This document shows positions 2,235-29,935 of a DNA stretch of 64,000 nucleotides, one piece after another. The stretch lies in contig JBNRSN020000167.1 of assembly GCA_051313645.2 (NCBI GenBank), forward strand, positions 124,001 through 188,000, read 5' to 3'. The notes under the pieces are model-generated. The model ran no database searches. It was not told the DNA's origin and worked only from the letters and a program-made list of their open reading frames with translations. This DNA comes from Centroscyllium fabricii (Eukaryota). The translations under genes and the position numbers were made by a program. The stretch's first letter is position 1; each line of letters begins with the position of its first letter.

Positions 2235-2317
2235 ATTTAATCAACTTTGCAAAACTTCTCACTCAACTCGAACTTTTGGACAAAACTCGGAGCTGAGGAT
2301 CCAGGGAACCGCCCAGC

Positions 2318-5982: not shown

Positions 5983-6305
5983 GGCAGACCGACTATGAGC
6001 CCGTTGGGGCTCGCACACGCAGCCGCGATCCACCCCGTTCTACACGCCCAGGAACAAATCTGCCACAGACCTACTCAACACCCGTTCGGGCTCAAACGCA
6101 AAGCCATGATCTCCCAGACCCTTCACAGGGCGGGCCAGACCACACGGACTCTGATCAATGGCCCACGGCATGTAAACGGGCTAGAGACCCTCTATCACCA
6201 TGGGAACCCAAACGGGTGCGACTCTCCCTCATTCGACGGATGCGTAATGAAGGGAGGATTCCGGCCTCCTACTCTTTTGGGAGGGAGGCGGCCTCCTAAT
6301 CTTTT

Positions 6306-6317
6306 GGGAGGGAAGAA
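6306..6317 (+). promoter_or_regulatory. Polypurine tract (plus-strand primer site)
   Basis: GGGAGGGAAGAA immediately before the TG start of the 3' LTR. Confidence 0.85.
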
Positions 6318-6545
6318 TGTGGTAATACAGAACAGCTTCTAGCTTGGAGTTTTTGCTTACATCACTTCTGGGGACCTATGAACTTTGTATGATGTCACTT
6401 CCTGTAATGAGCCCAGTATAAATACTGGGCTACTCAGTATGATTTAGTAAGAGGCATGGTGCAGACCTCTTTTGTATGTATCACAGTTATAAGTTGATTA
6501 AAGCTTACCTTAAGTTCATATCGTGTAAGTTTCATTCTTACAACA
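6318..6545 (+). repeat. Gypsy 3' LTR (228 bp)
   Basis: TGTGG...CAACA termini, follows the PPT, matches the 5' LTR remnant. Confidence 0.93.
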
Positions 6546-6765
6546 GACTCCTTAATTAATATTGCGAGACCCCCTCCTCTTTTAACCCCCCCCCGTCTCG
6601 CCTGAAGATTCTATACCCCGGAATATTGAGCTGCCAGTCCTGCCCCTCCCGCAACCATGTCTCCGTGATAGCAACAATATCATACTCCCATGTGTTCAAC
6701 AACACCTTCAATTCATCCACCTTATTCGCAAGACTCCTTGCATTAAAATAAGTGCCATCGAGCCT
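6546..6765 (-). mobile_element. CR1 LINE fragment (ORF2 N-terminal AP-endonuclease), cut by the Gypsy insertion
   Basis: Minus strand reads YFNARSLANKVDELK...YDIVAITETWLREGQDWQLNIPGYRIFR, homologous to the ORF2 start of the CR1 at ~29500-29700. Confidence 0.85.
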
Positions 6766-6809
6766 CGCGTCACAGTTTTATCCGCAAACCATATACACCC
6801 CTGATCTCT

Positions 6810-7101
6810 GACCATGGTACACACTGCACACACTGCTGCTGATGGAGGGGTGGATATTGAGTCCAGTGACAGGGGCTCCGATGAAGCGGGCTGCTTTATC
6901 CTGAATGGTGTCGAGCTTCTTGAGTGTTGTTGGAGCTGCACTCATCCAGGCAAGTGGAGAGTATTCCATCACACTCCTGACTTGTGCCTTGTAGATGGTG
7001 GAAAGGCTTTGGGGAGTCAGGAGGTGGGACACTCACCGCAGAATACCTAGCACCTGGCCTGCTCTTGTAGCCACAGTTTTGATACAGCTGGTCCAGTTCA
7101 G
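6810..7101 (-). mobile_element. Degenerate LINE fragment of a second family (CR1/L2 group, post-RT region)
   Basis: Minus-strand peptide PQSLSTIYKAQVRSVMEYSPLAW...KKLDTIQDKAARFI follows the Y..VR..LEY...W..LD.IQ.KA.R pattern of LINE ORF2. Confidence 0.75.
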
Positions 7102-7579
7102 CCTCAGGATTAGCAGGAGAAGCCTGGCCCTCGCGGACTGCGTATCAGGAAGTGGAGAGACGTCTGCCGATTTCCTGAATGTGTCTGCAGTGAGCAAGGC
7201 TCCAACATCGGGAGCGTACATTCAGGAAATAGTCCCTCGGTTCTTTTAGATCACGTTGCACTTGCTCTGTAAATTCAGCTCGGTTGCCGAGGGAAGTAAA
7301 GTCCGGGTGTTTCTTATAGCGAGAAAAGAGACAAAACAATGGGTGAACCGGCCAACCCAGCTCCAGAAATACACCTCCTGGGGTTTGGTTTACAGCTACA
7401 CCAGTAGCAAGAGGAGATCATTTGTATACATGACAGGCACTTCAAGAGTTAATGCACAGCATATTCAATGACAAGAGTGAGAGAGAAAAAGTATTTGAGC
7501 GCTGCAGGTTTTTTGCAGAGGTTTGTGTGACAGTATTGGACTGAATTTGTCTTGCTTTTATTCTCCACTCTTTCTTCAG

Positions 7580-7699
7580 ATCCTCTGGGTCTTGCTGTTG
7601 GCTACCATCCTCGGTCTCATGCTACAGAGACTGTCGGCCCGGTTAGGAGTTGTAAGTGGCATGCAACTGGCTGAGGTCTGTCGCAGGCAGTATCCCAAG
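7580..7699 (+). CDS. slc11a2: Internal exon (120 bp) of an NRAMP/SLC11 divalent metal transporter, SLC11A2/DMT1-like
   Basis: tttcttcag| acceptor and |gtatgt donor. Encodes [40 protein letters not shown], matching the conserved NRAMP QRLAARLGVV...LAEVC..QYPK exon. Family is certain; paralogue assignment is less so. Confidence 0.92.
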
Positions 7700-7949
7700 G
7701 TATGTACCAGAGTTCCAAACTTCTCCATCAGATAAAGTTGTAAGCATAGCCTAAAAGAGCTTGGAGACGATTTTCCTGACTGTTGCCCCTGGGGAATGGC
7801 CTGGAAAAGTCAGGAGAAAGGAGACACGTTTTGTCCGGTTTCCACCACATTGACGATGTATTGGAATTCCCAAGGCTTGTCTGAGTGGCAAAGCAGGGCC
7901 TGGAATTTTATCTTGTGTCAGTCCTCTGTTCCCCATTCTTTGCCCCTGC

Positions 7950-8350
7950 AGAGTGAGTGAGAGGTTTACTGGTTGAGGACAAGGGCTATCACCTGAACAC
8001 TTGGCTCATGACCCCTCTCAGGAACCCACACTCAGTGTGCTGTAATCAGATCTATGGCGAGATGAGAGCTCTCATCGAGCAGATCTATGGAGTCCTTAGG
8101 CAGCCATGTTGCTGCTTGGACAGGTCAGCTGGCTTCCTCCAATGCAGAGAGCATTCTGTATGATTGCGATTTGCTGTAAGCTGCACAACTTTGCTCTGCA
8201 ATGGGGGCAACACATGGAGCTACCATTGGAGAGAACCTTCAGCATGATGCGAGAGAGGACACAGAAGATGTAGAGGATGGAGAAGAAGTGTGAGGAGTCC
8301 TACAGCCAGAGCTCTTCAGCACCAGCTTATTGAAGAGAACTTCAGTTGAA
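7950..8350 (+). pseudogene. Degenerate PIF/Harbinger (HARBI1-like) transposase C-terminal fragment
   Basis: LLVEDKGYHLNTWLMTPLRNP, RALIEQIYGVLR..CCLDRSAGFLQ and CCKLHNFAL match the Harbinger motifs GD.GY.L..WLMTP, IE...G.LK.RFRCL and CC.LHN; followed by an acidic stretch; disrupted by stops and indels. Confidence 0.8.
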
Positions 8351-11300
8351 CAATCTCTGCTCCCCTACATTAACAGCCATGTCCAACATCTCACCCACTC
8401 ACAGTACACTCAAATAAATGACATCTGACCAAAGACCAACACTGATATTCATGTCAGCTGACATTGCGTGGAGTTGCTTCTCTATTTTGACAACAATATA
8501 AGCACCACCACTTCAAGCTGCTGCAGGCCTTTATGCACCTGCGGCAGTGCCTGGCTTCCCACATCCCAAACAGTGACATCCCTGTGGCCAGCACGTTTCT
8601 CACTGGCAGCTTGCCTCCACTGTACAAATGATGGGTGACCCAGAAACTAGGACTGGTCTCCTGCTGACTCCTCCAATAGATGTTCTTCGAACCCTGCCCA
8701 CCTCCCTCTCGGACACACCTATGCCTTTTGCAGAACGAGAAGGATCAACAGAAGCAGTCAACCCATAAAACAAAAATACAAGTCAGAGTACAGTGTAGAG
8801 AGTTCTAGTCAGACCCACCTAGAGTACAGTGTAGAGAGTTCTAGTCAGACCCACCCTGAGCACGGTGTCCAGTGTGGTCAGACCCACCTTGAGCACGGTG
8901 TCCAGTGTGGTCAGACCCACCCTGAGCAGGGTGTCCAGTGTGGTCAGACCCACCTTGAGCACGGTGTCCAGTTGTGGTCAGACCCACCTTGAGCACTGTG
9001 TCCAGTTGTGGTCAGACCCTCCTTCAGCACTGTGCCCAGTTCTGGTCAGACCCAACTTGAGCACGGTGTCCAGTTGTGGTCAGACCAACCTTGAGCACTA
9101 TGTCCAGTTCTGGTCAGACCCACCTGGAGCACAGTGTCCAGTTCTGGTCAAACCAACCTTGAGCACAGTGTGCTGTACTGGTCAGACCAACCTTGAGCAC
9201 AGTGTCCAGTTCTAGTCAAACCCACCTTGAGCACTGTTTCCAGTTCTGGTCAGACCCACCTTGAGCACTGTGTCCATTTCTGGTCAGACCCACCTTGAGC
9301 ACTGTGTCCAGTTCTGGTCAGACCCACCTTGAGCACTGTGTCCAGTTCTGGTCAGACCCACCTTGAGCACAGTGTCCTGTTCTGGTCAGACCCACCTTGA
9401 GCGCTGTGTCCAGTTCTGGTCAGACCCACCTTGAACACTGTGTCCAGTTTGGTCAGACCCACCTTGAGCAGAGTGTCCTGTTCTGGTCAGACCCACCTTG
9501 AGCGCTGTGTCCAGTTCTGGTCAGACCCAACTTGAGCACAGTGTCCTGTTCTGGTCAGACCTACCTTGAGCACTGTGTCCAGCTCTGGTCAGACCCACCT
9601 TGAGCAGAGTGTCCTGTTCTGGTCAGACCCACCTTGAGCGCTGTGTCCAGTTCTGGTCAGACCCACCTTGAGCATCGTGTCCAGTTTGGTCAGACCCACC
9701 TTGAGCACTGTGTCCAGTTCTGGTCAGACCCAACTTGAGCACAGTGTCCTGTTCTGGTCAGACCCAACTTGAGCACAGTGTCCTGTTCTGGTCAGACCCA
9801 CCTTGAACACTGTGTCCAGTTTGGTCAGACCCACCTTGAGCACTGTGTCCAGTTCTGGCCAGACCCAACTTGAGCACAGTGTCCTGTTCTGGTCAGACCC
9901 AACTTGAGCACAGTGTCCTGTTCTGGTCAGACCCACCTTGAGCGCTGTGTCCAGTTCTGGTCAGACCCACCTTGAGCATCGTGTCCAGTTCTGGTCAGAC
10001 CGACCTTGAGCACTGTGTCAAGTTCTGGTCAGACCCACCTTGAGTACTGTGTCCATTTCTGGTCAGACCCACCTTGAGCACTGTGTCCAGTTCTGGTCAG
10101 ACCCACCTTGAGCACTGTGTCCTGTTCTGGTCAAACCCATCTTGAGTACTGTGTCCAGTTCTGGTCACACCCACCTTGAGCACTGTGTCCTGTTCTGGTC
10201 AGACCCACCTTGAGCACTGTGTCCAGTTATGCTCAGACCCACCTTGAACACTGTGTCCAGTTCTGGTCAGACCCACCTTGAGCACTGTGTCCTGTTCTGG
10301 TCAGACCCACCTTGAGTGCAGTGTCCAGTTCTGCTCAGACCCACCTTGAGTACTGTGTCCAGTTCTGGTCAGACACACATTGGGCACTGTGTCCAGTTCT
10401 ACTCAGACTCCCCTTGAGCGCAGTGTCCAGTTCTGCTCCGACCCACCTTGAGCACTGTGTCCAGTTCTGGTCAGAACCACCTTGAGCACTGCACCCAGTT
10501 CGGGTCAGATCCACCTTGAACACTGTGTCCAGTTCTGGTCAGACACACCTTGAGCACTGTGTCCAGTTCTGCTCAGACCCACCTTGTGCACTGTGTCCAG
10601 TTCTGCTCAGACCAACCTTGAGCACTGTGTCCAGGTCTGGTCAGACCCACCTTGAGCACTGCGTCCAGTTCTGGTCAGATCCACCTTGAGTACTGTGTCC
10701 AGTTCTGGTCAGACCCTCCTTGAGCATTGATTCCAGTTCGGGTCACAACCCCCTTGAACACTGTGTCCAGTTCTGTTCAGAATCACCTTGAGCACTGTGA
10801 CCAGTTCTGGTCAGACCCAACTTGAGCACTGTGTCCAGTTCTGGTCAGAATCACCTTGAGCACTGTGTCCAGTTCACAGTTATGGTCAGACCCACCTTGA
10901 GCACTGTGTCCAGTTCTGGTCAGATCCACCTTGAGCACTGTCTCCAGTTCTGGTCAGACCCACCTTGAGCACTGTGTCCAGTTCTCGTCAGACCCACCTT
11001 GAGCACTTTGTCCTGTTCTGGTCAGACCCACCTTGAGCACTGTGTCCAGTTCTGGTCAGATCCAACTTGAGTTCCATGTCCAGTTCTGTTCAGACCCACC
11101 TTGAGCACAGTGTCCAGTTATGGTCAGACCCACCTTGAGCACTGTGTCCAGTTCTGGTCAGACCCACCTTGAGCACTGTGTCCAGTTATGGTCAGACCCA
11201 CCTTGAGCACTGTGTCCAGTTCTGGTCAGACCCACCTTGAGCATTGTGTCCAGTTCTGGTCAGACCCACCTTGAGTACTGTGTCCAGTTCTGGTCAGATA

Positions 11301-14300
11301 CACCTTGAGTTCTGTGTCCAGTTCTGGTCAGACCCACCTTGAGCACCGTGTCCAGTTCTGGTCAGACCCACCTTGAGCAACGTGTCCAGTTCTGGTCAGA
11401 CCCACCTTGACCATTGTGTCCAGTTGTAGTCAGACCCACCTTGAGAACTGTGTCCCGTTCTGGTCAGATCCACCTTGAGCACTGAGTCCAATTCTGGTCA
11501 GATCCACCTTGAGCACTGTGTTCAGTTCTGGTCAGACCCACCTTCAGCACTGTGTCCAATTCAGGTCAGACCCACCTTGAGCACTTTGTCCAGTTCAGGT
11601 CAGACCCTCCGTGAGCGCTGTGTCCAGTTCTGGTCAGATCCACCTTGACCATTGTGTCCAATTCTGGTCAGACCCACCTTGAGCACTGTGTCCAGTTATG
11701 GTCAGAATCACCTTGTACACTATATCCAGTCCTGGTCAGACCCACCTTGAACACTGTGTCCAGATCTGGTCAGATCCACCTTGGGCACTGTGTCCAGTTC
11801 TGGTCAGACCCACCTTGATCACTGTGTTCTCTCTGGTCAGACTCACATTGAGCACTGTGTCAAGTTCTGCTCAGATCCACCTTGAGCACTGTGCCCAGTT
11901 CGGGTCAGATCCACCATGAACACTGTGTCCAGTTCTGGTCAGACCCACCTTGAGCACAGTGTCCAGTTCTGCTCAGACCCACCTTGAGCACTGTGTCCAG
12001 TTCGGGTCAGATCGACCTTGAACACTGTGTCCAGTTCTGGTCAGAATCACCTTGAGCACTGTGTTCAGTTCTGGTCAGACCCACCTTGAGCACTGTGTCC
12101 AGTTCTGCTCAGACCCACCTTGTGCACTGTGTCCAGCTCTGCTCAGACCAACCTTGAGCACTGTGTCCAGGTCTGGTCAGACCCACCTTGAGCACTGTGT
12201 CCAGTTCTAGTCAGATCCACCTTGAGCACTGTGTCCAATTCTAGTCAGATCCACCTTGACCATTGTGTCCAATTCTGGTCAGACCCACCTTGAGCACTGT
12301 GTCCAGTTCTGGTCAGACCCACATTGAGCACTCTGTCCAGTTCTGGTCAGACCCACCTTGAGCACTGTGTCCAGTTCTGGTTAGAGCCCCCTTGAGCACT
12401 GTGTCCAGTTCTGGTCAGACCCACCTTGAGCACTGTGTCCAGTTCTGGTCAGACCCACCTTGAGCACTGTGTCCAGTTCTGGTCAGATCCACCTTGCGTT
12501 CCATGTCCAGTTCTGTTCAGACCCACCTTGAGCACAGTGTCCAGTTCTGGTCAGACCCACCTTGAGCATTGTGTCCAGTTCTGGTCAGACCCACCTTGAG
12601 CATTGTGTCCAGTTCTGGTCAGACCCACCTTGAGCACTCTGTCCAGTTCCTGTCAGACCCACCTTGAGCACTGTGTCCAGTTCTGGTCAGACCCACCTTG
12701 AGCACAGTGTCCAGTTCTGGTCAGACCCACCTTGAGCATTGTGTCCAGTTCTGGTCAGACCCACCTTGAGCACTCTGTCCAGTTCCTGTCAGACCCACCT
12801 TGAGCACTCTGTCCAGTTCCTGTCAGACCCACCTTGAGTTCTGTGTCCAGTTCTGGTCAGACCCACCTTGAGCACCGTGTCCAGTTCTGGTCAGACCCAC
12901 CTTGACCACTGTGTCCAGTTCTGGTCAGATCCACCTTGAGCACTGTGTCCAGTTGCAGTCAGACCCACCTTGAGAACTGTGTCCCGTTCTGGTCAGATCC
13001 ACCTTGAGCACTGTGTCCAATTCTGGTCAGATCCACCTTGAGCACTGTGTTCAGTTCTGGTCAGACCCACCTTCAGCACTGTGTCCAATTCTGGTCAGAT
13101 CCACCTTGAGCACTGTGTTCAGTTCTGGTCAGACCCACCTTGAACACTGTGTCCAGCTCTGGTCAGACCCACCTTGAGCACTGTGTCCAGTTCAGGTCAG
13201 ACCCTCCGTGAGCACTGTGTCCAGTTCTGGTCAGACCCACCTTGAGTACTGTGTCCAGTTCTGGTCAGATCCACCTTGACCATTGTGTCCAATTCTGGTC
13301 AGACCCACCTTGAGCACTGTGTCCAGTTCTGGTCAGACACATCTTGAGCACTGTGTCCAGTTCTGGTTAGAACCACCTTGAACACTGTGTCCAGTTCTGG
13401 TCAGACCCACCTTGATCACTGTGTTCTCTCTGGTCAGATCCACCTTGGGCACTGTGTCAAGTTCTGCTCAGATCCACCTTGAGCACTGTGCCCAGTTCGG
13501 GTCAGATCCAACATGAACACTGTGTCCAGTTCTGGTCAGATCCACCTTGGGCACTATATCCAGTTCTGGTCAGACCCACCTTGAACACTGTGTCCAGTTC
13601 TGGTCAGATCCACCTTGGGCACTGTGTCAAGTTCTGCTCAGATCCACCTTGAGCACTGTGCCCAGTTCGGGTCAGATCCACCATGAACACTGTGTCCAGT
13701 TCTGGTCAGACCCACATTGAGCACTGTGTCCAGTTCTGCTCAGACCCACCTTGAGCACTGTGTCCAGTTCTGGTCAGACCAACCTTGAGCACTGTGTCCA
13801 GTTCGGGTCAGATCGACCTTGAACACTGTGTCCAGTTCTGGTCAGAATCACCTTGAGCACTGTGTTCAGTTCTGGTCAGACCCACCTTGAGCACTGTGTC
13901 CAGTTCTGGTCAGAATCACCTTGAGCGCTGTGTCCAGTTCTGGTCAGACCCACCTTGAGCACTGTGTCCAGTTCTGGTCAGACCCACCTTAAGACTGTGT
14001 CCAGTTCTGGTCAGAATCACCTTGAGCACTGTGTCCAGTTCTGGTCAGATCCACCTTGAGCACTGTGTCCAGTTCTGGTCAGACCCACCTTGAGCACTGT
14101 GTCCAGTTCTGGTCAGACCCACCTTGAGCACTGCGTCCAGTTCTGGTCAGACTCACCTTGAACACTGTGTCCAGTACTGGTCAGACCCACCTTGACGATT
14201 GTGTCCAGTTCTGGTCAGACCCACCTTGAGCACTCTGTCCAGTTCTGGTCAGACCCACCTTGAGCACTGTGTCCAGTTCTGGTCAGATCCACCTTGAGCA

Positions 14301-17300
14301 CTGTGTCCAGTTCTAGTCAGATCCACCTTGACCATTGTGTCCAATTCTGGTCAGACCCACCTTGAGCACTGTGTCCAATTCTGGTCAGATCCACCTTGAG
14401 CACTGTGTCCAGTTCTGGTCAGATCCACCTTGAGCAACGTGTTCAGTTCTGGTCAGACCCACCTTGAGCACTGTGTCCAGTTCTAGTCAGATCCACCTTG
14501 ACCATTGTGTCCAATTCTGGTCAGACCCACCTTGAGCACTGTGTCCAATTCTGGTCAGATCCACCTTGAGCACTGTGTCCAGTTCTGGTCAGATCCACCT
14601 TGAGCAACGTGTTCAGTTCTGGTCAGACCCACCTTGACCATTGTGTCCAATTCTGGTCAGATCCACCTTGAGCACTGTGTCCAGTTATGGTCAGACTCAC
14701 CTTGGGCACTGTGTCCAGTTCTGGTCAGATCCACCTTGAGCACTGTGTCCAGTTATGCTCAGACTCACCTTGGGCACTGTGTCCAGTTCTGGTCAGACTC
14801 ACCCTGGGCACTCTGTCCTGTTCTGGTGAACCCCACATTGAGCACGGTGTCCAGTTATGGTCAGACCCACATTGAGCAATGTGTCCAGTTCTGGTCAGAC
14901 CCACCTTGAGCACTGTGTCCAGTTCTAGTCAGAATCACCTTGAGCACAGTGTCCAGTTATGGTCAGACCCACATTGAGCAATGTGTCCAGTTCTGGTCAG
15001 ATCCACCTTGAGCATTGTGTCCAGTTCTAGTCAGAATCACCTTGAGCATTGTGTCCAGTTCTGGTCAGACCCACCTTGTGAACTGTGTCCAGTTCTGGTC
15101 AGATCCACCTTGAGCACTGTGTCCAGTTCTGGTCAGAATCACCTTGAGCGCTGTGTCCATTTCTGGTCAGATCCACCATGAGCACTGTGTCCAGTTCTGG
15201 TCAGATCCACCTTGAGCACTGTGTCCAGTTCTGGTTAGATCCACCTTGAGCACTGTGTCCAGTTATGGTCAGACTCACCTTGGGCACTGTGTCCAGTTCT
15301 GGTCAGATCCACCTTGAGCACTGTGTCCAGTTATGGTCAGATCCACCTTGAGCACTGTGTCCAGTTCTGGTCAGATCCACCTTGAGCACTGTGTCCAGTT
15401 CTGGTCAGACCCACCTTGAGCACTGTGTCCAGTTCTGGTCAGACCCACCTTGAGCACCGTGTCCAGTTCTGGTCAGACCCACCTTGAGCATTGTGTCCAG
15501 TTCTAGTCAGAATCACCTTGAGCGCGGTGTCCAGTTCTGGTCAGACATACCTTGAGCACTGTGTCCAGTTCTGGTCAGACACACCTTGTGAACTGTGTCC
15601 AGTTCTGGTCAGATCCACCTTGAGCACTGTGTCCAGTTCTGGTCAGAATCACCTTGAGCGCTGTGTCCGTTTCTGGTCAGATCCACCATGAGCACTGTGT
15701 CCAATTCTGGTCAGATCCACCTTGAGCACTGTGTCCAGTTCTGGTCAGACCCACCTTGAGCACTGTGTCCAGTTCTGGTCAGACCCACCTTGAGCACAGT
15801 GTCCAGTTCTGCTCAAACCCACCTTGAGTACTGTGTCCAGTTCTGGTCAAACCCACCTTGAGCGCAGTGTCCAGTTCTGCTCAAACCCACCTTGAGTACT
15901 GTGTCCAGTTCTGGTTAGATCCACCTTGACCATTGTGTCCAATTCTGGTCAGACCCACCTTGAGCACTGTGTCCAGTTCTGGTCAGATCCACCTTGAGCA
16001 CTATATCCAGTTCTGGTCAGACCCACCTTGAACACTGTGTCCAATTCTGGTCAGACCCACCGTGAACACTGTGTCCAGTTCTGGTCAGAATCACCTTGTA
16101 CACTATATCCAGTTCTGGTCAGACCCACCTTGATCACTGTGTTCTCTCTGGTCAGACTCACATTGAGCACTGTGTCAAGTTCTGCTCAGATCCACCTTGA
16201 GCACTGTGCCCAGTTCGGGTCAGATCCACCATGAACACTGTGTCCAGTTCTGGTCAGACCCACCTTGAGCACTGTGTCCAGTTCTGCTCAGACCCACCTT
16301 GAGCACTGTGTCCAGTTCTGGTCAGTCCCACCTTGAGCACAGTGTCCAGTTCTGGTCAGACCCACCTTGAGCACTGTGTCCAGTTCGGGTCAGATCGACC
16401 TTGAACACTGTGTTCAGTTCTGGTCAGAATCACCTTGAGCACTGTGTCCAGTTCTGGTCAGAATCACCTTGAGCGCTGTGTCCAGTTCTGGTCAGACCCA
16501 CCTTGAGCACTGTGTCCAGTTCTGCTCAGACCCACCTTGTGCACTGTGTCCAGTTCTGCTCAGACCAACCTTGAGCACTGTGTCCAGGTCTGGTCAGACC
16601 CACCTTGAGCACTGTGTCCAGTTCTGGTCGGATCCACCTTGAGTACTGTGTCCAGTTCTGGTCAGACCCTCCTTGATCATTGATTCCAGTTCGGGTTAAA
16701 AAAACCCTTGAACACTGTGTCCAGTTCTGTTCAGAATCACCTTGAGCACTGTGACCAGTTCTGGTCAGACCCAACTTGAGCACTGTGTCCAATTCTGGTC
16801 AGAATCACCTTGAGCGCTGTGTCCAGTTCACAGTTATGGTCAGACCCACCTTGAGCACTGTGTCCAGTTCTGGTCAGAATCACCTTGAACGCTGCGTCCA
16901 GTTCTGGTCAGACCCACCTTGACCACTGTGTCCAGTTCTTGTCAGACCAACCTTGAGCACTCTGTCCAGTTCTGGTCAGACCCACCTTGAGCACTGTGTC
17001 CAGTTCTGGTCAGACCAACCTTGAGCACTGTGTCCAGTTCTGGTCAGACCCACCTTGAGCACTGTGTCCAGTTCTGGTGAGACCCACCTTGAGCACTGTG
17101 TCCAGTTCTGGTCAGACCCACCTTGAGCACTGTGTCCAGTTCTGGTCAGATCCACCTTGAGTTCCATGTCCAGTTCTGTTCAGACCCACCTTGAGCACTG
17201 TGTCCAATTCTGGTCCGACCCACCTTGAGCACTGTGTCCAGTTCTGGTCAGACCCACCTTGAGCACAGTGTCCAGTTCTGGTCAGACCCACCTTGAGCTC

Positions 17301-20300
17301 TGTGTCCAGTTCTGGTCAGACCCACCTTGAGCATTGTGTCCATTTCTGGTCAGACCCACCTTGAGCATTGTGTCCAGTTCTGGTCAGACCCACCTTGAGC
17401 ACTCTGTCCAGTTCCTGTCAGACCCACCTTGAGTACTGTGTCCAGTTCTGGTCAGATACACCTTGAGTTCTGTGTCCAGTTCTGGTCAGACCCACCTTGA
17501 GCACCGTGTCCAGTTCTGGTCAGACCCACCTTGAGCAACGTGTCCAGTTCTGGTCAGACCCACCTTGACCACTGTGTCCAGTTGTAGTCAGATCCACCTT
17601 GAGCACTGTGTCCAGTTGTAGTCAGACCCACCTTGAGAACTGTGTCCCGTTCTGGTCAGATCCACCTTGAGCACTGTGTCCAATTCTGGTCAGATCCACC
17701 TTGAGCACTGTGTTCAGTTCTGGTCAGACCCACCTTCAGCACTGTGTCCAATTCAGGTCAGACCCACCTTGAGCACTGTGTCCAATTCTGGTCAGATCCA
17801 CCTTGAGCACTGTGTTCAGTTCTGGTCAGACCCACCTTGAGCACTGTGTCCAGTTCAGGTCAGACCCTCCGTGAGCACTGTGTCCAGTTCTGGTCAGACC
17901 CACCTTGAGTACTGTGTCCAGTTCTGGTCAGATCCACCTTGACCATTGTGTCCAATTCTGGTCAGACCCACCTTGAGCACTGTGTCCAGTTATGGTCAGA
18001 CTCACCTTGAACACTGTGTCCAGTTCTGGTCAGATCCACCTTGGGCACTGTGTCCAGTTCTGGTCAGACCCACCTTGATCACTGTGTTCTCTCTGGTCAG
18101 ACTCACATTGAGCACTGTGTCAAGTTCTGCTCAGATCCACCTTGAGCACTGTGCCCAGTTCGGGTCAGATCCACCATGAACACTGTGTCCAGTTCTGGTC
18201 AGACCCACATTGAGCACTGTGTCCAGTTCTGCTCAGACCCACCTTGAGCACTGTGTCCAGTTCTGGTCAGTCCCACCTTGAGCACAGTGTCCAGTTCTGG
18301 TCAGACCAACCTTGAGCACTGGATCCAGTTCGGGTCAGATCGACCTTGAACACTGCGTCCAGTTCTGGTCAGACTCACTTTGAACACTGTGTCCAGTTCT
18401 GGTCAGACCCACCTTGACGATTGTGTCCAGTTCTGGTCAGACCCACCTTGAGCACTCTGTCCAGTTCTGGTCAGACCCACCTTGAGCACTGTGTCCAGTT
18501 CTGGTCAGATCCACCTTGAGCACTGTGTCCAGTTCTAGTCAGATCCACCTTGACCATTGTGTCCAATTCTGGTCAGACCCACCTTGAGCACTGTGTCCAA
18601 TTCTGGTCAGATCCACCTTGAGCACTGTGTCCAGTTCTGGTCAGATCCACCTTGAGCAACGTGTTCAGTTCTGGTCAGACCCACCTTGAGCACTGTGTCC
18701 AGTTCTAGTCAGATCCACCTTGACCATTGTGTCCAATTCTGGTCAGACCCACCTTGAGCACTGTGTCCAATTCTGGTCAGATCCACCTTGAGCACTGTGT
18801 CCAGTTCTGGTCAGATCCACCTTGAGCAACGTGTTCAGTTCTGGTCAGACCCACCTTGACCATTGTGTCCAATTCTGGTCAGATCCACCTTGAGCACTGT
18901 GTCCAGTTATGGTTGGACTCACCTTGGGCACTGTGTCCAGTTCTGGTCAGATCCACCTTGAGCACTGTGTCCAGTTATGCTCAGACTCACCTTGGGCACT
19001 GTGTCCAGTTCTGGTCAGACTCACCCTGGGCACTCTGTCCAGTTCTGGTGAAACCCACATTGAGCACGGTGTCCAGTTATGGTCAGACCCACATTGAGCA
19101 ATGTGTCCAGTTCTGGTCAGACCCACCTTGAGCACTGTGTCCAGTTCTAGTCAGAATCACCTTGAGCACAGTGTCCAGTTATGGTCAGACCCACATTGAG
19201 CAATGTGTCCAGTTCTGGTCAGACCCACCTTGAGCATTGTGTCCAGTTCTAGTCAGAATCACCTTGAGCATTGTGTCCAGTTCTGGTCAGACCCACCTTG
19301 TGAACTGTGTCCAGTTCTGGTCAGATCCACCTTGAGCACTGTGTCCAGTTCTGGTCAGAATCACCTTGAGCGCTGTGTCCATTTCTGGTCAGATCCACCA
19401 TGAGCACTGTGTCCAGTTCTGGTCAGATCCACCTTGAGCACTGTGTCCAGTTCTGGTTAGATCCACCTTGAGCACTGTGTCCAGTTATGGTCAGACTCAC
19501 CTTGGGCACTGTGTCCAGTTCTGGTCAGATCCACCTTGAGCACTGTGTCCAGTTATGGTCAGATCCACCTTGAGCACTGTGTCCAGTTCTGGTCAGATCC
19601 ACCTTGAGCACTGTGTCCAGTTCTGGTCAGACCCACCTTGAGCACTGTGTCCAGTTCTGGTCAGACCCACCTTGAGCACCGTGTCCAGTTCTGGTCAGAC
19701 CCACCTTGAGCATTGTGTCCAGTTCTAGTCAGAATCACCTTGAGCGCTGTGTCCAGTTCTGGTCAGACATACCTTGAGCACTGTGTCCAGTTCTGGTCAG
19801 ACACACCTTGTGAACTGTGTCCAGTTCTGGTCAGATCCACCTTGAGCACTGTGTCCAGTTCTGGTCAGAATCACCTTGAGCGCTGTGTCCGTTTCTGGTC
19901 AGATCCACCATGAGCACTGTGTCCAATTCTGGTCAGATCCACCTTGAGCACTGTGTCCAGTTCTGGTCAGACCCACCTTGAGCACTGTGTCCAGTTCTGG
20001 TCAGACCCACCTTGAGCACAGTGTCCAGTTCTGGTCAAACCCACCTTGAGTACTGTGTCCAGTTCTGGTCAAACCCACCTTGAGCGCAGTGTCCAGTTCT
20101 GCTCAAACCCACCTTGAGTACTGTGTCCAGTTCTGGTCAGATCCACCTTGACCATTGTGTCCAATTCTGGTCAGACCCACCTTGAGCACTGTGTCCAGTT
20201 CTGGTCAGATCCACCTTGAGCACTATATCCAGTTCTGGTCAGACCCACCTTGAACACTGTGTCCAATTCTGGTCAGACCCACCGTGAACACTGTGTCCAG

Positions 20301-20601
20301 TTCTGGTCAGAATCACCTTGTACACTATATCCAGTTCTGGTCAGACCCACCTTGAACAATGTGTCCAGTTCTGGTCAGATCCACCTTGGGCACTGTGTCC
20401 AGTTCTGGTCAGACCCACCTTGAGCATTGTGTCCAGTTCTAGTCAGAATCACCTTGAGCGCTGTGTCCAGTTCTGGTCAGACATACCTTGAGCACTGTGT
20501 CCAGTTCTGGTCAGACACACCTTGTGAACTGTGTCCAGTTCTGGTCAGATCCACCTTGAGCACTGTGTCCAGTTCTGGTCAGAATCACCTTGAGCGCTGT
20601 G

Positions 20602-20710
20602 GGACGGGATACTGAACTGAAGGATCAGCCATGATCTCATTGAATGGCGGAGCAGGCTCGAAGGGCCGAATGGCCTACTCCTGCTCCTATCATCTATGTA
20701 TCTATGTATG
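20602..20710 (+). mobile_element. Heavily 5'-truncated CR1 insertion (last ORF2 codons, 3' UTR, TCTATGTA-type tail)
   Basis: GTGY* then gatcagccatgatctcattgaatggcggagcaggctcgaagggccgaatggcctactcctgctcctat, nearly identical to the reverse complement of 26826-26915. Confidence 0.92.
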
Positions 20711-20771
20711 TCCGTTTCTGGTCAGATCCACCATGAGCACTGTGTCCAATTCTGGTCAGATCCACCTTGAG

Positions 20772-21823
20772 TGTAAGGGAATGGTAATGGATCTGGTGAG
20801 CGGGACCCAAATGCAGAAACACTGAGAAACCGTCTTGATACAAAAAACCCTTTAATCTAACAAAACATGTTTGAATAAAACATACAATTCTAGACACAAG
20901 TCTTTGACTAAAGACAGGCACATACTTTAACGTTATTATTAAAACCCTAGAGGCAGAATATTAACAAGTCCTCCTCCGAACCGGACAGGCTTTCTACTGG
21001 GCGTGGAACCCTTTAAACCGACCACAACCCCAGAGAGGTACAAGCCTTAGTGGAATCTGTTATCATGACCACTTCTATCAGAGAGGAACAAGTTCTACGC
21101 AGCCAAGTAGTAGAGTAGCTAACATACAACAGGGCCTAATAACAACAGATAATGAACAGTCCAATTATGAAGGTAGAATGCAATGATGTCCAGCTCCTCT
21201 GTTCCACCACAGAGACTTAACCCCATGGTAACAGGCAGGAAAGATAATTCCTGATCTTCCTAACAGATGTCCAAACCTCGGTTCGGGTGAATTAAGCCAA
21301 TGTCCAAGGAGTAGAAATGGGTCCGACCTACTTCTTCTGCTCCACCACGGAGACTTAACCCCATGGCATCAGGCAGTAGCGCACCAGGTCTACTGGCAGG
21401 GGAACTCCCTTACCCAACAGATGAGTGTCCATGTCTGAGTCCCAGATAGCAGGGTACTATGTCAAGACGGAGTGATGTGGGCTCGGTCCCATAGTCCCTC
21501 TTAAGTCCACTCAGAGAAGCAGAGCAATCCCTTCTGCTTCTTTTCCATCCAGTGAAGTGTGATATCATAGAAACTTCTGCAATGATCCCGCAACCTGTCT
21601 GGTCAAACCATGGGCTAATAAACCCAAACCAGCCTAATCAGATGATTGATGTTGACCAATCAGGGTGCAGGCATATACAAACAGAAAACACCTGGTTGTG
21701 AACAACCCAATTGATACACTTAACCCACACATAGAACAACACTTAGAACCAAAATGGGAACATTAAAGGGATATGCCCAAATAAAACATGGATGCCTTAA
21801 AGGGGGCATGCCAAACTGTGACA
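20772..21823 (-). mobile_element. Solo LTR (1052 bp) with 5-bp target-site duplication TTGAG
   Basis: TGT...ACA termini; TTGAG at 20767-20771 and 21824-21828; satellite phase resumes exactly. Orientation inferred from ATTAAA on the minus strand ~80 bp from the end and from homology to 1142-2088. Confidence 0.9.
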
Positions 21824-24800
21824 TTGAGCACTGTGTCCAGTTCTGGTCAGACCCACCTTGAGCACTGTGTCCAGTTCTGGTCAGACCCACCTTGAGCACA
21901 GTGTCCAGTTCTGGTCAAACCCACCTTGAGTACTGTGTCCAGTTCTGGTCAAACCCACCTTGAGCGCAGTGTCCAGTTCTGCTCAAACCCACCTTGAGTA
22001 CTGTGTCCAGTTCTGGTCAGATCCACCTTGACCATTGTGTCCAATTCTGGTCAGACCCACCTTGAGCACTGTGTCCAGTTCTGGTCAGATCCACCTTGAG
22101 CACTATATCCAGTTCTGGTCAGACCCACCTTGAACACTGTGTCCAATTCTGGTCAGACCCACCGTGAACACTGTGTCCAGTTCTGGTCAGAATCACCTTG
22201 TACACTATATCCAGTTCTGGTCAGACCCACCTTGAACACTGTGTCCAATTCTGGTCAGACCCACCTTGAACAATGTGTCCAGTTCTGGTCAGATCCACCT
22301 TGGGCACTGTGTCCAGTTCTGGTCAGACCCACCTTGATCACTGTGTTCTCTCTGGTCAGACTCACATTGAGCACTGTGTCAAGTTCTGCTCAGATCCACC
22401 TTGAGCACTGTGCCCAGTTCGGGTCAGATCCACCATGAACACTGTGTCCAGTTCTGGTCAGACCCACCTTGAGCACTGTGTCCAGTTCTGCTCAGACCCA
22501 CCTTGAGCACTGTGTCCAGTTCTGGTCAGTCCCACCTTGAGCACAGTGTCTAGTTCTGGTCAGACCCACCTTGAGCACTGTGTCCAGTTCGGGTCAGATC
22601 GACCTTGAACACTGTGTCCAGTTCTGGTCAGAATCACCTTGAGCACTGTATCCAGTTCTGGTCAGAATCACCTTGAGCGCTGTGTCCAGTTCTGGTCAGA
22701 CCCACCTTGAGCACTGTGTCCAGTTCTGCTCAGACCCACCTTGTACACTGTGTCCAGTTCTGCTCAGACCAACCTTGAGCACTGTGTCCAGGTCTGGTCA
22801 GACCCACCTTGAGCACTGTGTCCAGTTCTGGTCAGATCCACCTTGAGTACTGTGTCCAGTTCTGGTCAGACCCTCCTTGATCATTGATTCCAGTTCAGGT
22901 TAAAAAAAACCTTGAACACTGTGTCCAGTTCTGTTCAGAATCACCTTGAGCACTGTGACCAGTTCTGGTCAGACCCAACTTGAGCACTGTGTCCAGTTCT
23001 GGTCAGAATCACCTTGAGCGCTGTGTCCAGTTCACAGTTATGGTCAGACCCACCTTGAGCACTGTGTCCAGTTCTGGTCAGAATCACCTTGAACGCTGCG
23101 TCCAGTTCTGGTCAGACCCACCTTGAGCACTGTGTCCAGTTCTTGTCAGACCAACCTTGAGCACTCTGTCCAGTTCTGGTCAGACCCACCTTGAGCACTG
23201 TGTCCAGTTCTGGTCAGACCCACCTTGAGCACTGTGTCCAGTTCTGGTCAGATCCACCTTGAGTTCCATGTCCAGTTCTGGTCAGACCCACCTTGAGCAC
23301 TGTGTCCAATTCTGGTCCGACCCACCTTGAGCACTGTGTCCAGTTCTGGTCAGACCCACCTTGAGCACAGTGTCCAGTTCTGGTCAGACCCACCTTGAGC
23401 ACTGTGTCCAGTTCTGGTCAGACCCACCTTGAGCATTGTGTCCATTTCTGGTTAGACCCACCTTGAGCATTGTGTCCAGTTCTGGTCAGACCCACCTTGA
23501 GCACTCTGTCCAGTTCCTGTCAGACCCACCTTGAGTACTGTGTCCAGTTCTGGTCAGATCCACCTTGAGCACTGTGTCCAGTTGTAGTCAGACCCACCTT
23601 GAGAACTGTGTCCAGTTCTGGTCAGATCCACCTTGAGCACTGTGTCCAATTCTGGTCAGATCCACCTTGAGCACTGTGTTCAGTTCTGGTCAGACCCACC
23701 TTCAGCACTGTGTCCAATTCAGGTCAGACCCACCTTGAGCACTGTGTCCAATTCTGGTCAGATCCACCTTGAGCACTGTGTTCAGTTCTGGTCAGACCCA
23801 CCTTGAGCACTGTGTCCAGTTCAGGTCAGACCCTCCGTGAGCACTGTGTCCAGTTCTGGTCAGACCCACCTTGAGTACTGTGTCCAGTTCTGGTCAGATC
23901 CACCTTGACCATTGTGTCCAATTCTGGTCAGACCCACCTTGAGCATTGTGTCCAGTTATGGTCAGACTCACCTTGAACACTGTGTCCAGTTCTGGTCAGA
24001 TCCACCTTGGGCACTGTGTCCAGTTCTGGTCAGACCCACCTTGATCACTGTGTTCTCTCTGGTCAGACTCACATTGAGCACTGTGTCAAGTTCTGCTCAG
24101 ATCCACCTTGAGCACTGTGCCCAGTTCGGGTCAGATCCACCATGAACACTGTGTCCAGTTCTGGTCAGACCCACATTGAGCACTGTGTCCAGTTCTGCTC
24201 AGACCCACCTTGAGCACTGTGTCCAGTTCTGGTCAGTCCCACCTTGAGCACAGTGTCCAGTACTGGTCAGACCAACCTTGAGCACTGGATCCAGTTCGGG
24301 TCAGATCGACCTTGAACACTGTGTCCAGTTCTGGTCAGAATCACCTTGAGCACTGTGTTCAGTTCTGGTCAGACCCACCTTGAGCACTGTGTCCAGTTCT
24401 GGTCAGAATCACCTTGAGCGCTGTGTCCAGTTCTGGTCAGACCCACCTTGAGCACTGTGTCCAGTTCTGGTCAGACCCACCTTAAGACTGTGTCCAGTTC
24501 TGGTCAGACCCACCTTGAGCACCGTGTCCAGTTCTGGTCAGACCCACCTTGAGCATTGTGTCCAGTTCTATTCAGAATCACCTTGAGCGCTGTGTCCAGT
24601 TCTGGTCAGACATACCTTGAGCACTGTGTCCAGTTCTGGTCAGACCCACCTTGTGAACTGTGTCCAGTTCTGGTCAGATCCTCCTTGAGCACTGTGTCCA
24701 GTTCTGGTCAGAATCACCTTGAGCGCTGTGTCCGTTTCTGGTCAGATCCACCATGAGCACTGTGTCCAATTCTGGTCAGACCCACCTTGAGCACTGTGTC

Positions 24801-25770
24801 CAGTTCTGGTCAGACCCACCTTGAGCACAGTGTCCAGTTCTGGTCAAACCCACCTTGAGCCCAGTGTCCAGTTCTGCTCAAACCCACCTTGAGTACTGTG
24901 TCCAGTTCTGGTCAGACCCACCTTGAGCGCAGTGTCCAGTTCTGGTCAGACCCACCTTGAGCACTGTGTCCAGTTCTGCTCAGACCCACCTTTAGCATTG
25001 TGTCCAGTTCTAGTCAGACCCACCTTATGTACTGTGTCCAGTTCTGGTCAGACCCACCTTGAGCACAGTGTCCAGTTCTGGTCAAACCCACCTTGAGTAC
25101 TGTGTCCAGTTCTTGTCAGACCCACCTTGAGCACGGTGTCCAGATCTGGCCAGACCCACCTTGAGCACAGTGTCCACTTCTGGTCAGACCCACCTTGAGC
25201 ACTGTGTCCACTTCTGGTCAGACCCACCTTGAGCACAGTGTCCACTTCTGGTCAGACCCACCTTGAGCACTGTGTCCACTTCTGGTCAGACCCACCTTGA
25301 GCACAGTGTCCAGTTCTGGTCAAACCCTCCTTGAGTACTGTGTCCAGTTCTGGTCAGACCCACCTTGAGCACTGTGTCCACTTCTGGTCAGACCCACCTT
25401 GAGCACTGTGTCCACTTCTGGTCAGACCCACCTTGAGCACTGTGTCCAGTTCTGGTCAAACCCACCTTGAGCACTGTGTCCAGTTCTGGTCAGACCCACC
25501 TTGAGCACTGTGTCCAGTTCTGGTCAGACCCACCTTGAGCACAGTGTCCAGTTCTGGTCAGTGAGACACAGGGGAGGCATTCAAACGCTGGAGAGAGTGT
25601 AGAGAGGAGCGACGAGGCTGGTCGACAGTGAAAAGTGTCAAGAATCTGTGTTATGGGGAGAGACTGGGTGAATCTGGGCTTTTTAAACTGGACAGGAGGC
25701 ATTTGCGAGGTGACCTTATAGAGGGATATCCGATAGTTAAGGGAATGGAAAAACGTAAATCTCCTATATT

Positions 25771-26188
25771 GGGCCAGAATTTCCTCTGTGCAGGTTGGTG
25801 CGTGCGCTAGGACCCTGCGGACACCTATCGCACACACCAACATCGCACAGAAGTTGCTCCCTGACTTTCCTCCCCGTTCCTGCGCTGCCTGGCAGTCCAG
25901 CCACGCTAGGTGCGCAGTGTAAATCTTGTCCCTCACGCACGAGTTTACTACTGGTTTTCCCGGGTGCAGCTTGTGGGCCAGTTGCACACAGAATCACTCT
26001 CCAAAAATCACCCTTTTGGATTGCAAATTCTGGGTGCAACTCACTCCTGCATTTGATGCTGAGGGCCCTTCTCCCTCAGCAGAAGAAATTCCCGTTCGTG
26101 GGCATCCCCCGTGCGTTCATCGCACGGGTCATTTCGGACCCCTTTCCGTGCGTGTGCAGCTCCTCTGGCGTAGAGGATATTCTGGCCC
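25771..26188. mobile_element. Non-autonomous DNA transposon (MITE), PIF/Harbinger-type
   Basis: 17-bp TIRs GGGCCAGAATTTCCTCT / AGAGGATATTCTGGCCC (1 mismatch), 3-bp TSD ATT on both sides; CR1 homology resumes after it. Confidence 0.88.
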
Positions 26189-26587
26189 ATTGCTTTAAAT
26201 TCAATTGTGAAAGTAGCACAAGGGGGGCGGGGGGTGGAGTCACAGGGTCAAACTAGTAAAAGGTTAATTTAGGTCTGATATCAGGTAGTTTCTCTGCACA
26301 CAGAGGGTGACCAACACCTGGATAGAGGAGGGGAGGCAAACACCTGGAATTAGTTAAGAACCAATCGGATGTTACAATGGGGAGAAGGTGTGTTTGGAAC
26401 TTTTTGAATGAATGTATTAAGATGGGCTGAGTGGCCTTCCTCATGCATAATTATCCTGTGATATGTGAGAATGACATTGCTGTCATTTCTTCGGGCTGTT
26501 TCACTCACCTACTTCAGATTATCAAGCAGATCAGATGACAGCAGTCAATTCCCAGTTTGCTCACAACTAACACTTGCTGTATTGTGA

Positions 26588-26704
<117 letters not shown>

Positions 26705-26900
26705 TAGAGTACAATCGCTTTGAGTTCCCTCCAATGGTGTTTCACTACTGATTGTTACATTCTGGCAGTCTGAGTTGAACTTTCCCTGTTCCTACACTCA
26801 TTCTTAATCATAGAATCATAGAAGATAGGAGCAGGAGTAGGCCATTCGGCCCTTCGAGCCTGCTCCGCCATTCAACGAGATCATGGCTGATCTTACACGT

Positions 26901-29710
26901 TCAGTACCCAGTCCCTGCCTTCTCCCCATATCCCTTAATCCCTTTAGCCTGAAGAAATATATCTAGTTCCCTCTTGAATATATTCAATGAACCGGCCTCC
27001 ACCGCCCTCTGTGGCAAGGAATTCCACAGGTTCACCACTCTCTGTGTGAAGAATTTTCTCCTCATCTCAGTCCTACAAGGCTTACCCCTTATCCTTAGAC
27101 TATGCCCCCTGGTTCTTGACTCCCCGGCCATCGGAAACATCCTTTCTGCATCTAACCTGTCCACGCCTGACAGAATTTTATAAGTCTCGATGAGATCCCC
27201 TCTTAATCTTCTAAACTCCAGCGAGTATAAGCCCAGACTACACAATCTCTCCTCATAAGTCATTCCTGCCATCCCAGGTATCAGCCTGGTGAATCGTCGC
27301 TGTACTCCCTCCATGGCAAGAACATCCTTCCTCAGATGCGGCGACCAAAACTGCACACAATACTCAAGGTGTGGCCTCACCAAGACCCTGTACAGCTGCA
27401 GCAAGACATCCCTATTCCTATACTCAAACCCTCTTGATATAAAGGCCAACATACCATTTGCCTTTTTAACCGCCTGCTGCACCTGCATGCTCACCTTCAG
27501 TGACTGGTGTACAAGAATACCCAGATCTCTTTGCACTTCCCCATCTCCCAATCTATTGCCGTTCAAATAATATTCTGCCTTTCTGTTTTTGCTACCAAAG
27601 TGGATAACCTCACATTTATCCACATTATAGTGCATTTGCCATGTGTTCGCCCAATCCCCCAATCTGTCCAGGTCGCTCTGGAGCTTCCCGACATCCTCCT
27701 CAGAGCATACTCCCCCTCCAAGCTTAGTGTCATCTGCGAATTTGGAGATGTTACATCCAATTCCCTCATCCAGGTCATTAATATATATTGTGAACAGCTG
27801 GGGTCCCAGTACCGACCCCTGTGGTACCCCACGAGTCACTGCCCGCCAATCAGAAAACGACCCGTTTATCCCAACTCTCTGTTTTCTATCTGCCAACCAG
27901 TTCTCTATCCATGCCAATACCTTGCCCCCAATCCCATGAGCCTTAATTTTGCCTGCCAATCTCCTATGAGGGACCTTGTCAAAGGCTTTCTGGAAGTCCA
28001 GATAAACCACATCTACTGGCTCTCCCCTATCTATTTTATCGGTTACATCCTCGAAGAATTCCAATAGATTAGTCAAGCACGATTTACCTTTTGTAAATCC
28101 ATGTTGACTGTGTCCGATCCCGTCACTCTTAGTCAAGTGATCTGCTATTACGTCCTTAATAATGGACTCTAGCATTTTGCCCACAACCGATGTAAGGCTT
28201 ACCGGTCTATAATTCCCCGCCTTCTCTTTACCCCCCTTTTTGAATAGTGGGGTAACATTAGCTACCCTCCAATCCCTGGGCACCATTCCAGAGTCTATTG
28301 AGTTCTGGAAAATGATCCTCAAAGCATCTGATATCTCCAGGGCCACTTCCTTAAGCACCCTAGGATGCAGATTATCAGGCCCTGGGGATTTGTCGGCCTT
28401 TAATCCTTTCAATTTCCCGGACACCATATCCTTAGAGATATTGATTTCTTTCAGTTCCTCCCTCTCATTAGTCCCTATGTTTCCCGACATCTCCGGGAGG
28501 CTATTTGTGTCCTCCTCTGTGAAGACAGAACCAAAATATGAATTTAATTGGTCCGCCATTTCCTTGTTCCCCATTATATAATCTCCTGATTCGGACTGCA
28601 GGGGCCCGACTCTGGATTTCACCAGTCTCTTCCTTTTAATGTATCTGTAAAAGGTTTTGCAGTCAGTTTTTATGTTTGCCGCAAGCCTTCTTTCATAATC
28701 TATTTTCCCCTTCTTAATTAATCCCTTTGTCCTCCTTTGCTGTATCCTGAATTGTTCCCAATCTTCAGGTTTGCTGCTTTTTTTGGCCAGTTGATACGCC
28801 CTTTCTTTGGTTTTTATGTTATCCCTAATTTCCCTTGTTATCCACGGTTGAGTCACCTTTTTTGGTTTATTTTTATTCCAAACTGGTATAAACAAGCTCT
28901 GCGCTTCTTCCATTCGATCTTTGAATGCCTGCCATTGTTGATCCACCGTCAGCCCCCTGAGCGACACCCCCCAATCAATTGTACCCAACTTTCGTCTCAT
29001 ACCATCATAGTTCCCTTTTCTTAAATTTAGGACCTTAGTCTCCGAGTCAATTTCTTCCCTTTCCATTCTGAGTGAGAATTCGATCATATTATGATCGCTC
29101 CGCCCCAATGGGCCTCGTACAACAAGATTGCCAATCAATCCCTTCTCATTGCACAGTACCCAGTCTAAGATGGCCTGATCCCGAGTTGGTTCCTCGACAT
29201 ATTGGTCCAGGAAACCATCTCGTATACACTCCAGAAATTCCTCCTCCATCGTGTTTTTACTAATCTGGCTAGACCAATCTATATGTAAATTAAAGTCACC
29301 CATGATGACAGCTGTGCCCTTATTGCACGCTTCTTTAATTTCCCTTTTTATGCCTTCCCCAACCTCCATATTACTATTTGGCGGTCTATATACCACTCCC
29401 AGCAACATTTTTCGCCCCTTGCTATTCCTCAGTTCTACCCATACAGATTCCGCATCATCCGAGTTAATATCAGTCCTTTCAATTGAGTTAATCCCCTCCC
29501 TCACCAGTAATGCCACCCCACCTCCCTTTCTTTTTTGCCTATCCTTCCTAAATATTGTATACCCTGGTATGTTAAGTTCCCAGCCTTGTCCACCCTGCAG
29601 CCATATTTCTGTAATCGCAACCAAATCATATTTGTTTGCCTCTATTTCTACAGATCATTCATCTACCTTGTTCCAAATGCTTCTTGCATTAAGATACAAG
29701 GTTTTCAGGC
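26901..29710 (-). CDS. CR1 ORF2: AP-endonuclease plus reverse transcriptase; one nonsense codon near the N-terminus
   Basis: 907-aa frame with GDFN, SDH, YRPVSL, GVPQGSVLGP, FADD and LVRPHLEYCVQFWSP. In frame upstream: LYLNARSIWNKVDE*SVEIE, with TGA at 29655-29657. Confidence 0.95.
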
Positions 29711-29935
29711 TTGTTTTTTTCACTTTACCCGACCATTGTGCATTTTTATTACCTGCGGTCCTGTTTGCTTTTACCCGTTGATCTCCCTGCCTTATACTTT
29801 TGCTTTTCTCCTTCCTGTCTTTATCCTTTTTTCTTGTTTCCCTTTTTTCCGCCTCCTTACTTGTTTTTTCCTCTATATTAGCCTTTTCGCCACCCCCTAT
29901 TTTTGCTCCACTCCATATCCCAACCCCCTGCCAAG

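Follow-up and report, generated by a model that had tools for sequence, protein, structure and literature searches.

Organization of the locus

The window analyzed here is a stretch of 64,000 nucleotides of the Centroscyllium fabricii genome (assembly GCA_051313645.2, contig JBNRSN020000167.1, positions 124,001 to 188,000, forward strand). It contains two exons of a gene resembling SLC11A2 (NRAMP2/DMT1), separated by an intron of 18.9 kb (7700-26596), 89% of which is occupied by a tandem array of 34-bp units. The features of this region, in window coordinates, are the following:

7580..7699, plus strand: host exon preceding the array, SLC11A2 (NRAMP2/DMT1)-like, with AG/GT boundaries (Pfam Nramp, E 1e-12; splice dinucleotides read)
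7957..8160, plus strand: left flank, possible PIF/Harbinger transposase relic, weak (DDE_Tnp_4, E 0.098, under the curated cut-off)
8783..25561, plus strand: 34-bp tandem array, a mosaic of duplicated blocks, whose unit corresponds to the CR1 LVRPHLEYCVQF codons minus one base (TRF, monomer decomposition, block comparison, CR1 alignment)
8783..8840, plus strand: left edge of the array, a partial monomer and a full one of 36 bp (with a 2-nt insertion), both divergent, reading L-E-Y-S-V where the array has L-E-H-C-V (monomer decomposition)
20601..20709, plus strand: insertion 1, short LINE/SINE 3' tail that matches the intact CR1 at its 3' end (98/107 identical, E 4e-32; junctions read)
20772..21823, no strand assigned: insertion 2, a solo-LTR-like element of 1052 bp (TG...CA) flanked by a 5-bp target-site duplication, with a related sequence at 1522-2059 (junctions read)
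25554..25769, plus strand: decayed CR1 ORF2 directly after the last monomer (FWS...TLERV, ...YGERL...LRGDLIE), with one stop and one frameshift (blastn, tblastn, profile)
25770..26189, no strand assigned: MITE that interrupts the CR1 relic, its terminal inverted repeats 18 nt long (arms 25770-25787 and 26172-26189, 94% complementary)
26190..26468, plus strand: rest of the CR1 relic, comprising the ORF2 end with two more stops, a presumed 3' UTR and a decayed tail, the exact 3' end being approximate (profile, E 7.8e-5)
26597..26703, plus strand: next host exon, SLC11A2-like (phmmer best match NRAMP2, E 2.2e-14; NRAMP1, E 8.2e-12; boundaries read)
26901..29654, minus strand: ORF2 (917 aa) of another CR1, intact and lying in the following intron, used as the comparison copy, with the motif at 27349-27383 (RVT_1 and Exo_endo_phos domains)
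29936-30901, minus strand: ORF1 of the intact CR1, GDSL esterase (domain match)

An earlier note on this DNA, made from the sequence alone, had mentioned neither the host exons, nor the two insertions that interrupt the array, nor the MITE that lies within the CR1 relic. A giant tandem array lies in each of two consecutive introns of the SLC11A2-like gene, so that short repeats add at least 48 kb to its length, and about three-quarters of the window is tandem repeat. Human SLC11A2 lies on chromosome 12. Because part of this human chromosome is homologous to the shark X, and simple tandem repeats are abundant on short shark chromosomes (both in the accessible part of PMC10620051), the locus may sit on a short, tandem-repeat-rich shark chromosome.

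Structure of the 34-bp array

Tandem Repeats Finder (TRF) delimits an array of period 34 at 8801-25561, and the total span is about 17 kb once the edge monomers are counted. Decomposition into monomers gave 462 segments, 433 of which are exactly 34 bp long; when the two units split by insertions are merged, and the two partial ends included, the array comprises 460 monomers, in agreement with the figure of about 460 copies given in the earlier note. The copy number of 491 returned by TRF is wrong, as it counts 1.16 kb of insertions as array. The span first assigned to the array, 8770..26468, is sound for 8783-25561, while its right limit takes in the CR1 tail, which is not array. The monomers fall into 178 distinct types, with a mean identity of 93.4% to the commonest unit over the 456 near-full units. 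The right terminal unit is incomplete: it stops after 8 nt and is followed by CR1 codons.

By inspection, stops recur in the consensus unit at intervals of 34 codons on either strand, so that it would seldom yield predicted proteins. There were no Rfam matches within positions 1-33000 of the window. No function is indicated for the array, which is most likely neutral filler that is spliced out along with the intron.

The unit and the right flank derive from CR1

Aligned with the LVRPHLEYCVQF codons of the intact CR1 (minus strand, 27349-27383), the unit shows 28 matches in 35 positions and a single gap of one base. The local score is 48, above the maximum of 40 reached in 100 shuffles (mean 32.0, SD 2.1). 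The proposal that the unit is a CR1 motif with a 1-bp deletion is thereby upheld, and the unit is homologous to part of a transposable element, as expected of a transposon-derived minisatellite.

On its right side, the array exits into CR1 ORF2 and stays in register with it (blastn, 128/205 nt identical, E 2e-11). Named CR1 proteins match this right-flank relic by tblastn at E ~1e-12, and the profile of the CR1 C-terminus matches it in three collinear pieces (E 2e-8, 2e-12 and 8e-5), the last of which lies past the MITE. Collinearity with the C-terminus of ORF2 places the relic in the CR1 clade, and the array ends as the flanking-repeat model of transposon-derived minisatellites has it, with an incomplete terminal unit running into the parent sequence. 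That the array passes straight into CR1 codons and on to a 3' UTR, as had been noticed from the sequence, is confirmed by these matches, the 3' UTR itself being presumed. Because its 5' part is missing, the relic has no endonuclease and reverse transcriptase domains; its 3' tail is decayed. The unit therefore derives from the CR1 ORF2 motif: it spans L-V to Q-F and is continuous, in register, with a CR1 3' end.

The intact CR1 is only 62% identical to the relic, and is therefore a relative from another subfamily rather than the parent. None of 17 candidates compared for the parent subfamily of the relic was significant. Named relatives of its ORF2 C-terminus from Chiloscyllium (74% identity) and Mobula (70%) compare with 42-54% for bird and turtle proteins, which points to a cartilaginous fish as the host. 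The minus-strand element as a whole (26790-32014) is apparently full-length, with ORF1 and ORF2 open; on its 5' side, a 198-bp unit is repeated 3.4 times at 98% identity (31348-32014), possibly as promoter monomers.

The base lacking from the unit is restored in no monomer, the sole insertion at unit positions 9-14 belonging to a heavily altered unit at 16692. The deletion hence predates amplification, which began in a CR1 copy that was already frameshifted. An early one-base deletion is consistent with the state of the relic, which bears stops, a frameshift and a MITE.

CR1 sequence is found on one side of the array only

According to the earlier note, the array lay inside a CR1 ORF2. This did not hold on the left side, where nothing CR1-like was detected upstream of the array: a profile of the 120 residues that precede the motif reached at best E 2.3 on 7700-8830, compared to E 1.6e-51 on the intact CR1 used as a control. 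Likewise, with a set of 116 CR1 proteins (115 named ones plus the window's own; five unnamed of the 120 listed were omitted), the best of 31 plus-strand tblastn HSPs on the left had E 0.046, versus ~1e-12 on the right flank, and this best match lies 750 nt from the array, inside the possible Harbinger relic. Neither tblastn nor blastn with the window's intact element revealed a left CR1 flank. CR1 sequence is thus present nowhere in 7700-8780, and parent sequence collinear with the array is found to its right and not to its left. Since just 1.1 kb of intron remains on the left, the missing 5' part of the CR1 has not merely been displaced inside the intron.

Two consequences follow from the absence of a left CR1 flank: birth of the array at this locus is unproven, and the L-V context and microhomology of the founder are not independently readable. 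The left boundary falls within or just past the L-V codons, with a TAC codon immediately before the edge. Among 228 copies of the CR1 motif, Y occupies the position before L-V in 210, and Y is also the commonest residue (181/228) at the position where the array has H (L-E-Y versus L-E-H). The TAC codon at the edge hints that the founder might have begun a few bases before L-V, a reading that rests on a handful of bases and on an assumed deletion. No target-site duplication ties the left edge to the CR1 3' end; a single 5-nt word is shared, 46 nt beyond the presumed end.

Probable inside-out growth of the array by duplication of multi-unit blocks

Comparison of monomers along the array revealed long duplicated blocks. 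The largest is a block of 58 units copied at a lag of 124 units (block 158-215 versus 282-339) with 0.5% divergence, followed by blocks of 26 units at lag 148 (1.0%), 23 units at lag 141 (0.8%) and 20 units at lag 21 (0.3%); older block copies in the array interior diverge by 2-4%. This pattern indicates that the array grew by unequal exchange or long-tract copying, and not by unit-by-unit slippage. Slippage, to which all ~460 copies had initially been attributed, would explain at most the first duplication, the bulk having arisen through multi-unit blocks of up to 58 units (0.5%).

The two ends of the array share features that its interior lacks. Of 22 variants tabulated, only two contrast strongly: T24A is present in 12 of the 40 leftmost and 9 of the 40 rightmost units, versus 0-4 per interior window of 40 units, and C10T in 0/40 and 3/40, respectively, versus 5-18 in the interior. 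The monomers are not independent, so Fisher values for these end variants overstate significance. In addition, the last bin of 20 units correlates best with the first two bins (0.36 and 0.37). These observations support growth from the inside out at this locus, with older monomers left at both ends. Because the variants common to both ends are missing from the interior, most of the expansion took place here, as the proposal of an expansion in situ had it; what the end variants show is growth at the locus, not birth at the locus.

The two insertions are late. The block that bears them (342-361) has two uninterrupted paralogues at 0.3-0.5% divergence, and since both lack the insertions, the LINE tail and the LTR-like element entered after the newest block duplications. 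The LTR-like elements at 1522-2059 and 20772-21823 are in opposite orientation and 83% identical over 210 nt; the former abuts the 5' LTR of a Gypsy element, in which it may be nested.

Microhomology at the L-V and F-W codons

In CR1, the L-V and F-W residues are conserved (L in 219, V in 209, F in 186 and W in 222 of 228 copies, nearly all of them from one bird species), and their codons create a short direct repeat 35 nt apart. A natural CTGGTC microhomology had been proposed to bound the motif. The short, codon-imposed repeat does exist; at the 35-nt spacing, however, the intact CR1 shares 5 nt (TTGGT) and not the hexamer. CTGGTC is found only in the array, where the duplication itself places it at both ends. 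Similarly, 8 nt are common to the start of the unit and the exit of the array, in part as a consequence of the duplication. Eight further CR1-bearing loci (L001-L008) were available as short animal CR1-type contigs in bacterial genome assemblies, apparently contamination; two of them, L001 and L004, gave no match to the motif pattern, and the six other copies share 4, 4, 1, 3, 4 and 0 nt at L-V/F-W.

Short repeats of this kind are abundant: a single CR1 ORF2 contains, at spacings of 10-100 nt, 267, 63, 21 and 7 repeat pairs of at least 5, 6, 7 and 8 nt, respectively. The 63 pairs of at least 6 nt rule out that the site is special in its microhomology. Given this abundance, the L-V/F-W site is a plausible but unexceptional seed.

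Origin of the array

We favor an origin by a first duplication in this dead CR1 copy, either 5'-truncated or later deleted on its 5' side, followed by local growth, and we hold this to be the probable course of events. The starting material would be the L-V to Q-F segment that is observed in register with the CR1 3' end. A single duplication of this segment would then have occurred in a dead CR1 copy already lacking one base, possibly aided by a short repeat, YTGG(T), which arises 35 nt apart through the L-V and F-W codons. The founder probably lacked its 5' side, through truncation at the motif or just in front of it, or through a later loss. Growth from within would have followed, the observed copies of 4-58-unit blocks being suited to unequal exchange or long-tract copying, and the LINE tail and LTR-like element came last, after the newest block duplications. 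The incomplete 8-nt right terminal unit is as the slippage model predicts (in the part of PMC3389668 available).

Alternatively, the array was born elsewhere: a non-autonomous CR1 derivative with a short internal array would have been retrotransposed by means of its CR1 3' tail, 5'-truncated within the array, and expanded locally thereafter. This course predicts exactly the asymmetry that we observe, that is, a CR1 tail on the right and a partial monomer without CR1 on the left, and is equally compatible with local growth; moreover, spread of tandem repeats by transposition has been described for LTR12 (PMC3389668) and in general (PMC6947457), in the accessible portions of both papers. On the other hand, the window holds no second copy of the unit besides the motif of the intact CR1, the translated unit is absent among the 8000 candidate proteins scored, and the left boundary lies near a natural unit boundary, which by our own estimate random truncation would achieve about 1 time in 7. 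An origin elsewhere is thus possible, if rather unlikely.

A junction of chimeric nature would also be one-sided and in register: a dispersed CR1-derived satellite, its unit homologous to every CR1 copy at the motif, would have recombined or converted with a resident CR1 relic at the shared motif and replaced the 5' part of the relic. We consider this highly improbable, as it requires a donor array, of which we see no sign here, and as the variants common to both array ends point to a single local history. Finally, the unit is short and its copy number is that of the assembly, yet a chance likeness to CR1 or an assembly artefact can hardly be credited in view of a match that beats all 100 shuffles in register with an independently significant flank, of the 178 types of monomer, of block copies that diverge by degrees, and of the clean junctions of the insertions. 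An origin in the dead CR1 copy itself, with local growth, therefore remains the reading we prefer.

Relation to known repeat origins

The comparisons that follow refer to the accessible parts of the papers cited. An origin of minisatellites between short flanking direct repeats corresponds to the model of Haber and Louis (1998), and Alu-derived minisatellites were reported by Jurka and Gentles (2006), both as cited in PMC6947457. In the flanking-repeat model, the unit lies in the parent between direct repeats of 5-10 bp. Besides this route, satellites derived from LINE ORF2 and from chicken CR1 are described (PMC6947457, PMC9659126). Like the transposon-derived minisatellites of PMC6947457, the array has a unit taken from within a retroelement, possibly between copies of a short repeat, probably grew later by unequal crossing-over or conversion, and ends in an incomplete unit; it differs from them in that its parent is CR1 ORF2 coding sequence, of which one flank is left, and in its size (about 460 units and 17 kb, above the figure of roughly 100 units cited there for minisatellites).

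Transposons gave rise to at least 23% of human minisatellites and satellites (Ahmed and Liang 2012, PMC3389668), and the same study puts forward hotspots within AluS and LTR12 as well as propagation by transposition and an onset during retrotransposition. In that text the term CR1 has 0 occurrences, and its accessible part mentions no codon-imposed microhomology. Satellites derived from CR1 are known in chicken, namely the HinfI repeat and the Cen2/3/4/7/11 repeats (PMC9659126, PMC6947457). Like the array, they derive from the CR1 3' part including ORF2; the HinfI unit, however, embeds the 3' UTR and a partial ORF2, whereas the present unit is a slice of 34 bp, with the tail beyond the array. 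Long simple tandem arrays are typical of elasmobranch genomes and enriched on short chromosomes and in the X pseudoautosomal region (PMC10620051, bioRxiv 10.1101/2025.06.08.657570); in the accessible parts of these studies no unit is traced to a parent element, in contrast to the parent traced here. The accessible parts of PMC8854603 and PMC4992247 contain nothing on CR1-derived units. In a search of mostly open literature we found no publication on the 34-bp unit or on a shark CR1-derived satellite; a Repbase or Dfam entry is possible.

The class of mechanism is already known, as transposon-derived minisatellites, the flanking-repeat model and CR1-derived satellites have all been published. 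The array is a transposon-derived minisatellite grown to satellite size in an intron, and a large and clear example of a known repeat origin. Its value is that of a case study, in which the parent segment, the junction, the layers of growth and the late insertions can all be read in a conserved gene, and the locus is usable for dating array growth across sharks.

Possible recurrence of the motif as a seed, and other elements of the window

The codon-forced L-V...F-W repeat, imposed on a very large number of CR1 copies by conservation of the protein, might make the motif a recurrent, independent source of minisatellites across CR1-rich vertebrates, with some arrays spreading as array-plus-tail retroposons and filling introns of small, recombination-rich shark chromosomes, and the 16-bp array in the next intron could be a second birth, from the neighbouring motif L-x-Y-x-E-R-L. 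We regard this generalization as improbable. If true, coding constraints of LINEs would explain part of the tandem-repeat load of the small chromosomes of elasmobranchs. The searches for a second array were confined to proteins, bacterial and archaeal contigs and the eight CR1 loci, and lent no support to the recurrent seed suggested in the earlier note. The translated array frame had no match among the 8000 candidate proteins, which were 69-221 aa long; the tandem-junction DNA pattern had none in the bacterial and archaeal contigs; and an array of the unit was present at none of the eight other CR1-bearing loci (L001-L008). A search with the junction peptide gave nine protein matches, seven of them unrelated repeat proteins and two short unnamed proteins, which were not used as evidence.

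The second, larger array occupies 32204-64000 in the next intron of the SLC11A2-like gene and runs past the window end; it consists of about 1994 copies of a 16-bp unit (31.8 kb), with long-range repeats near 2.1, 4.8 and 9.5 kb. A variant at its edge matches the relic CR1 at 25646-25661 (L-C-Y-G-E-R-L codons) at 15 of 16 positions (BLAST E 0.67); for this variant, which was chosen post hoc, the score on the relic is equalled by 2 of 150 shuffles, and that on the intact element by 86 of 150. The commonest 16-bp unit does not match CR1, its scores being equalled by 104/150 and 65/150 shuffles. At the exit of the 16-bp array, no profile match to CR1 was found (best E 2.2), nor any excess over shuffles in 10 of 10 comparisons. 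A CR1 origin of this array would be a lead, to which the array exit lends no support.

The window contains several other elements. Just left of the 16-bp array lies a small element with terminal inverted repeats (32040-32140), recognized by eye. At the other end, positions 1-1085 contain the GC-rich terminal part of a LINE-like ORF, in which a cysteine/histidine motif is present and behind which an A/T-rich tail lies; this ORF end may resemble Tx1. A Gypsy-type LTR retrotransposon spans 2090-6545, with short LTRs and with protease, reverse transcriptase, RNase H and integrase spread over two overlapping frames. It is followed, at 6556-7150 on the minus strand, by a piece of CR1 endonuclease adjoining a piece of a more distant LINE, in which a homologue of the Y-x-x-x-V-R motif is present in unexpanded form.
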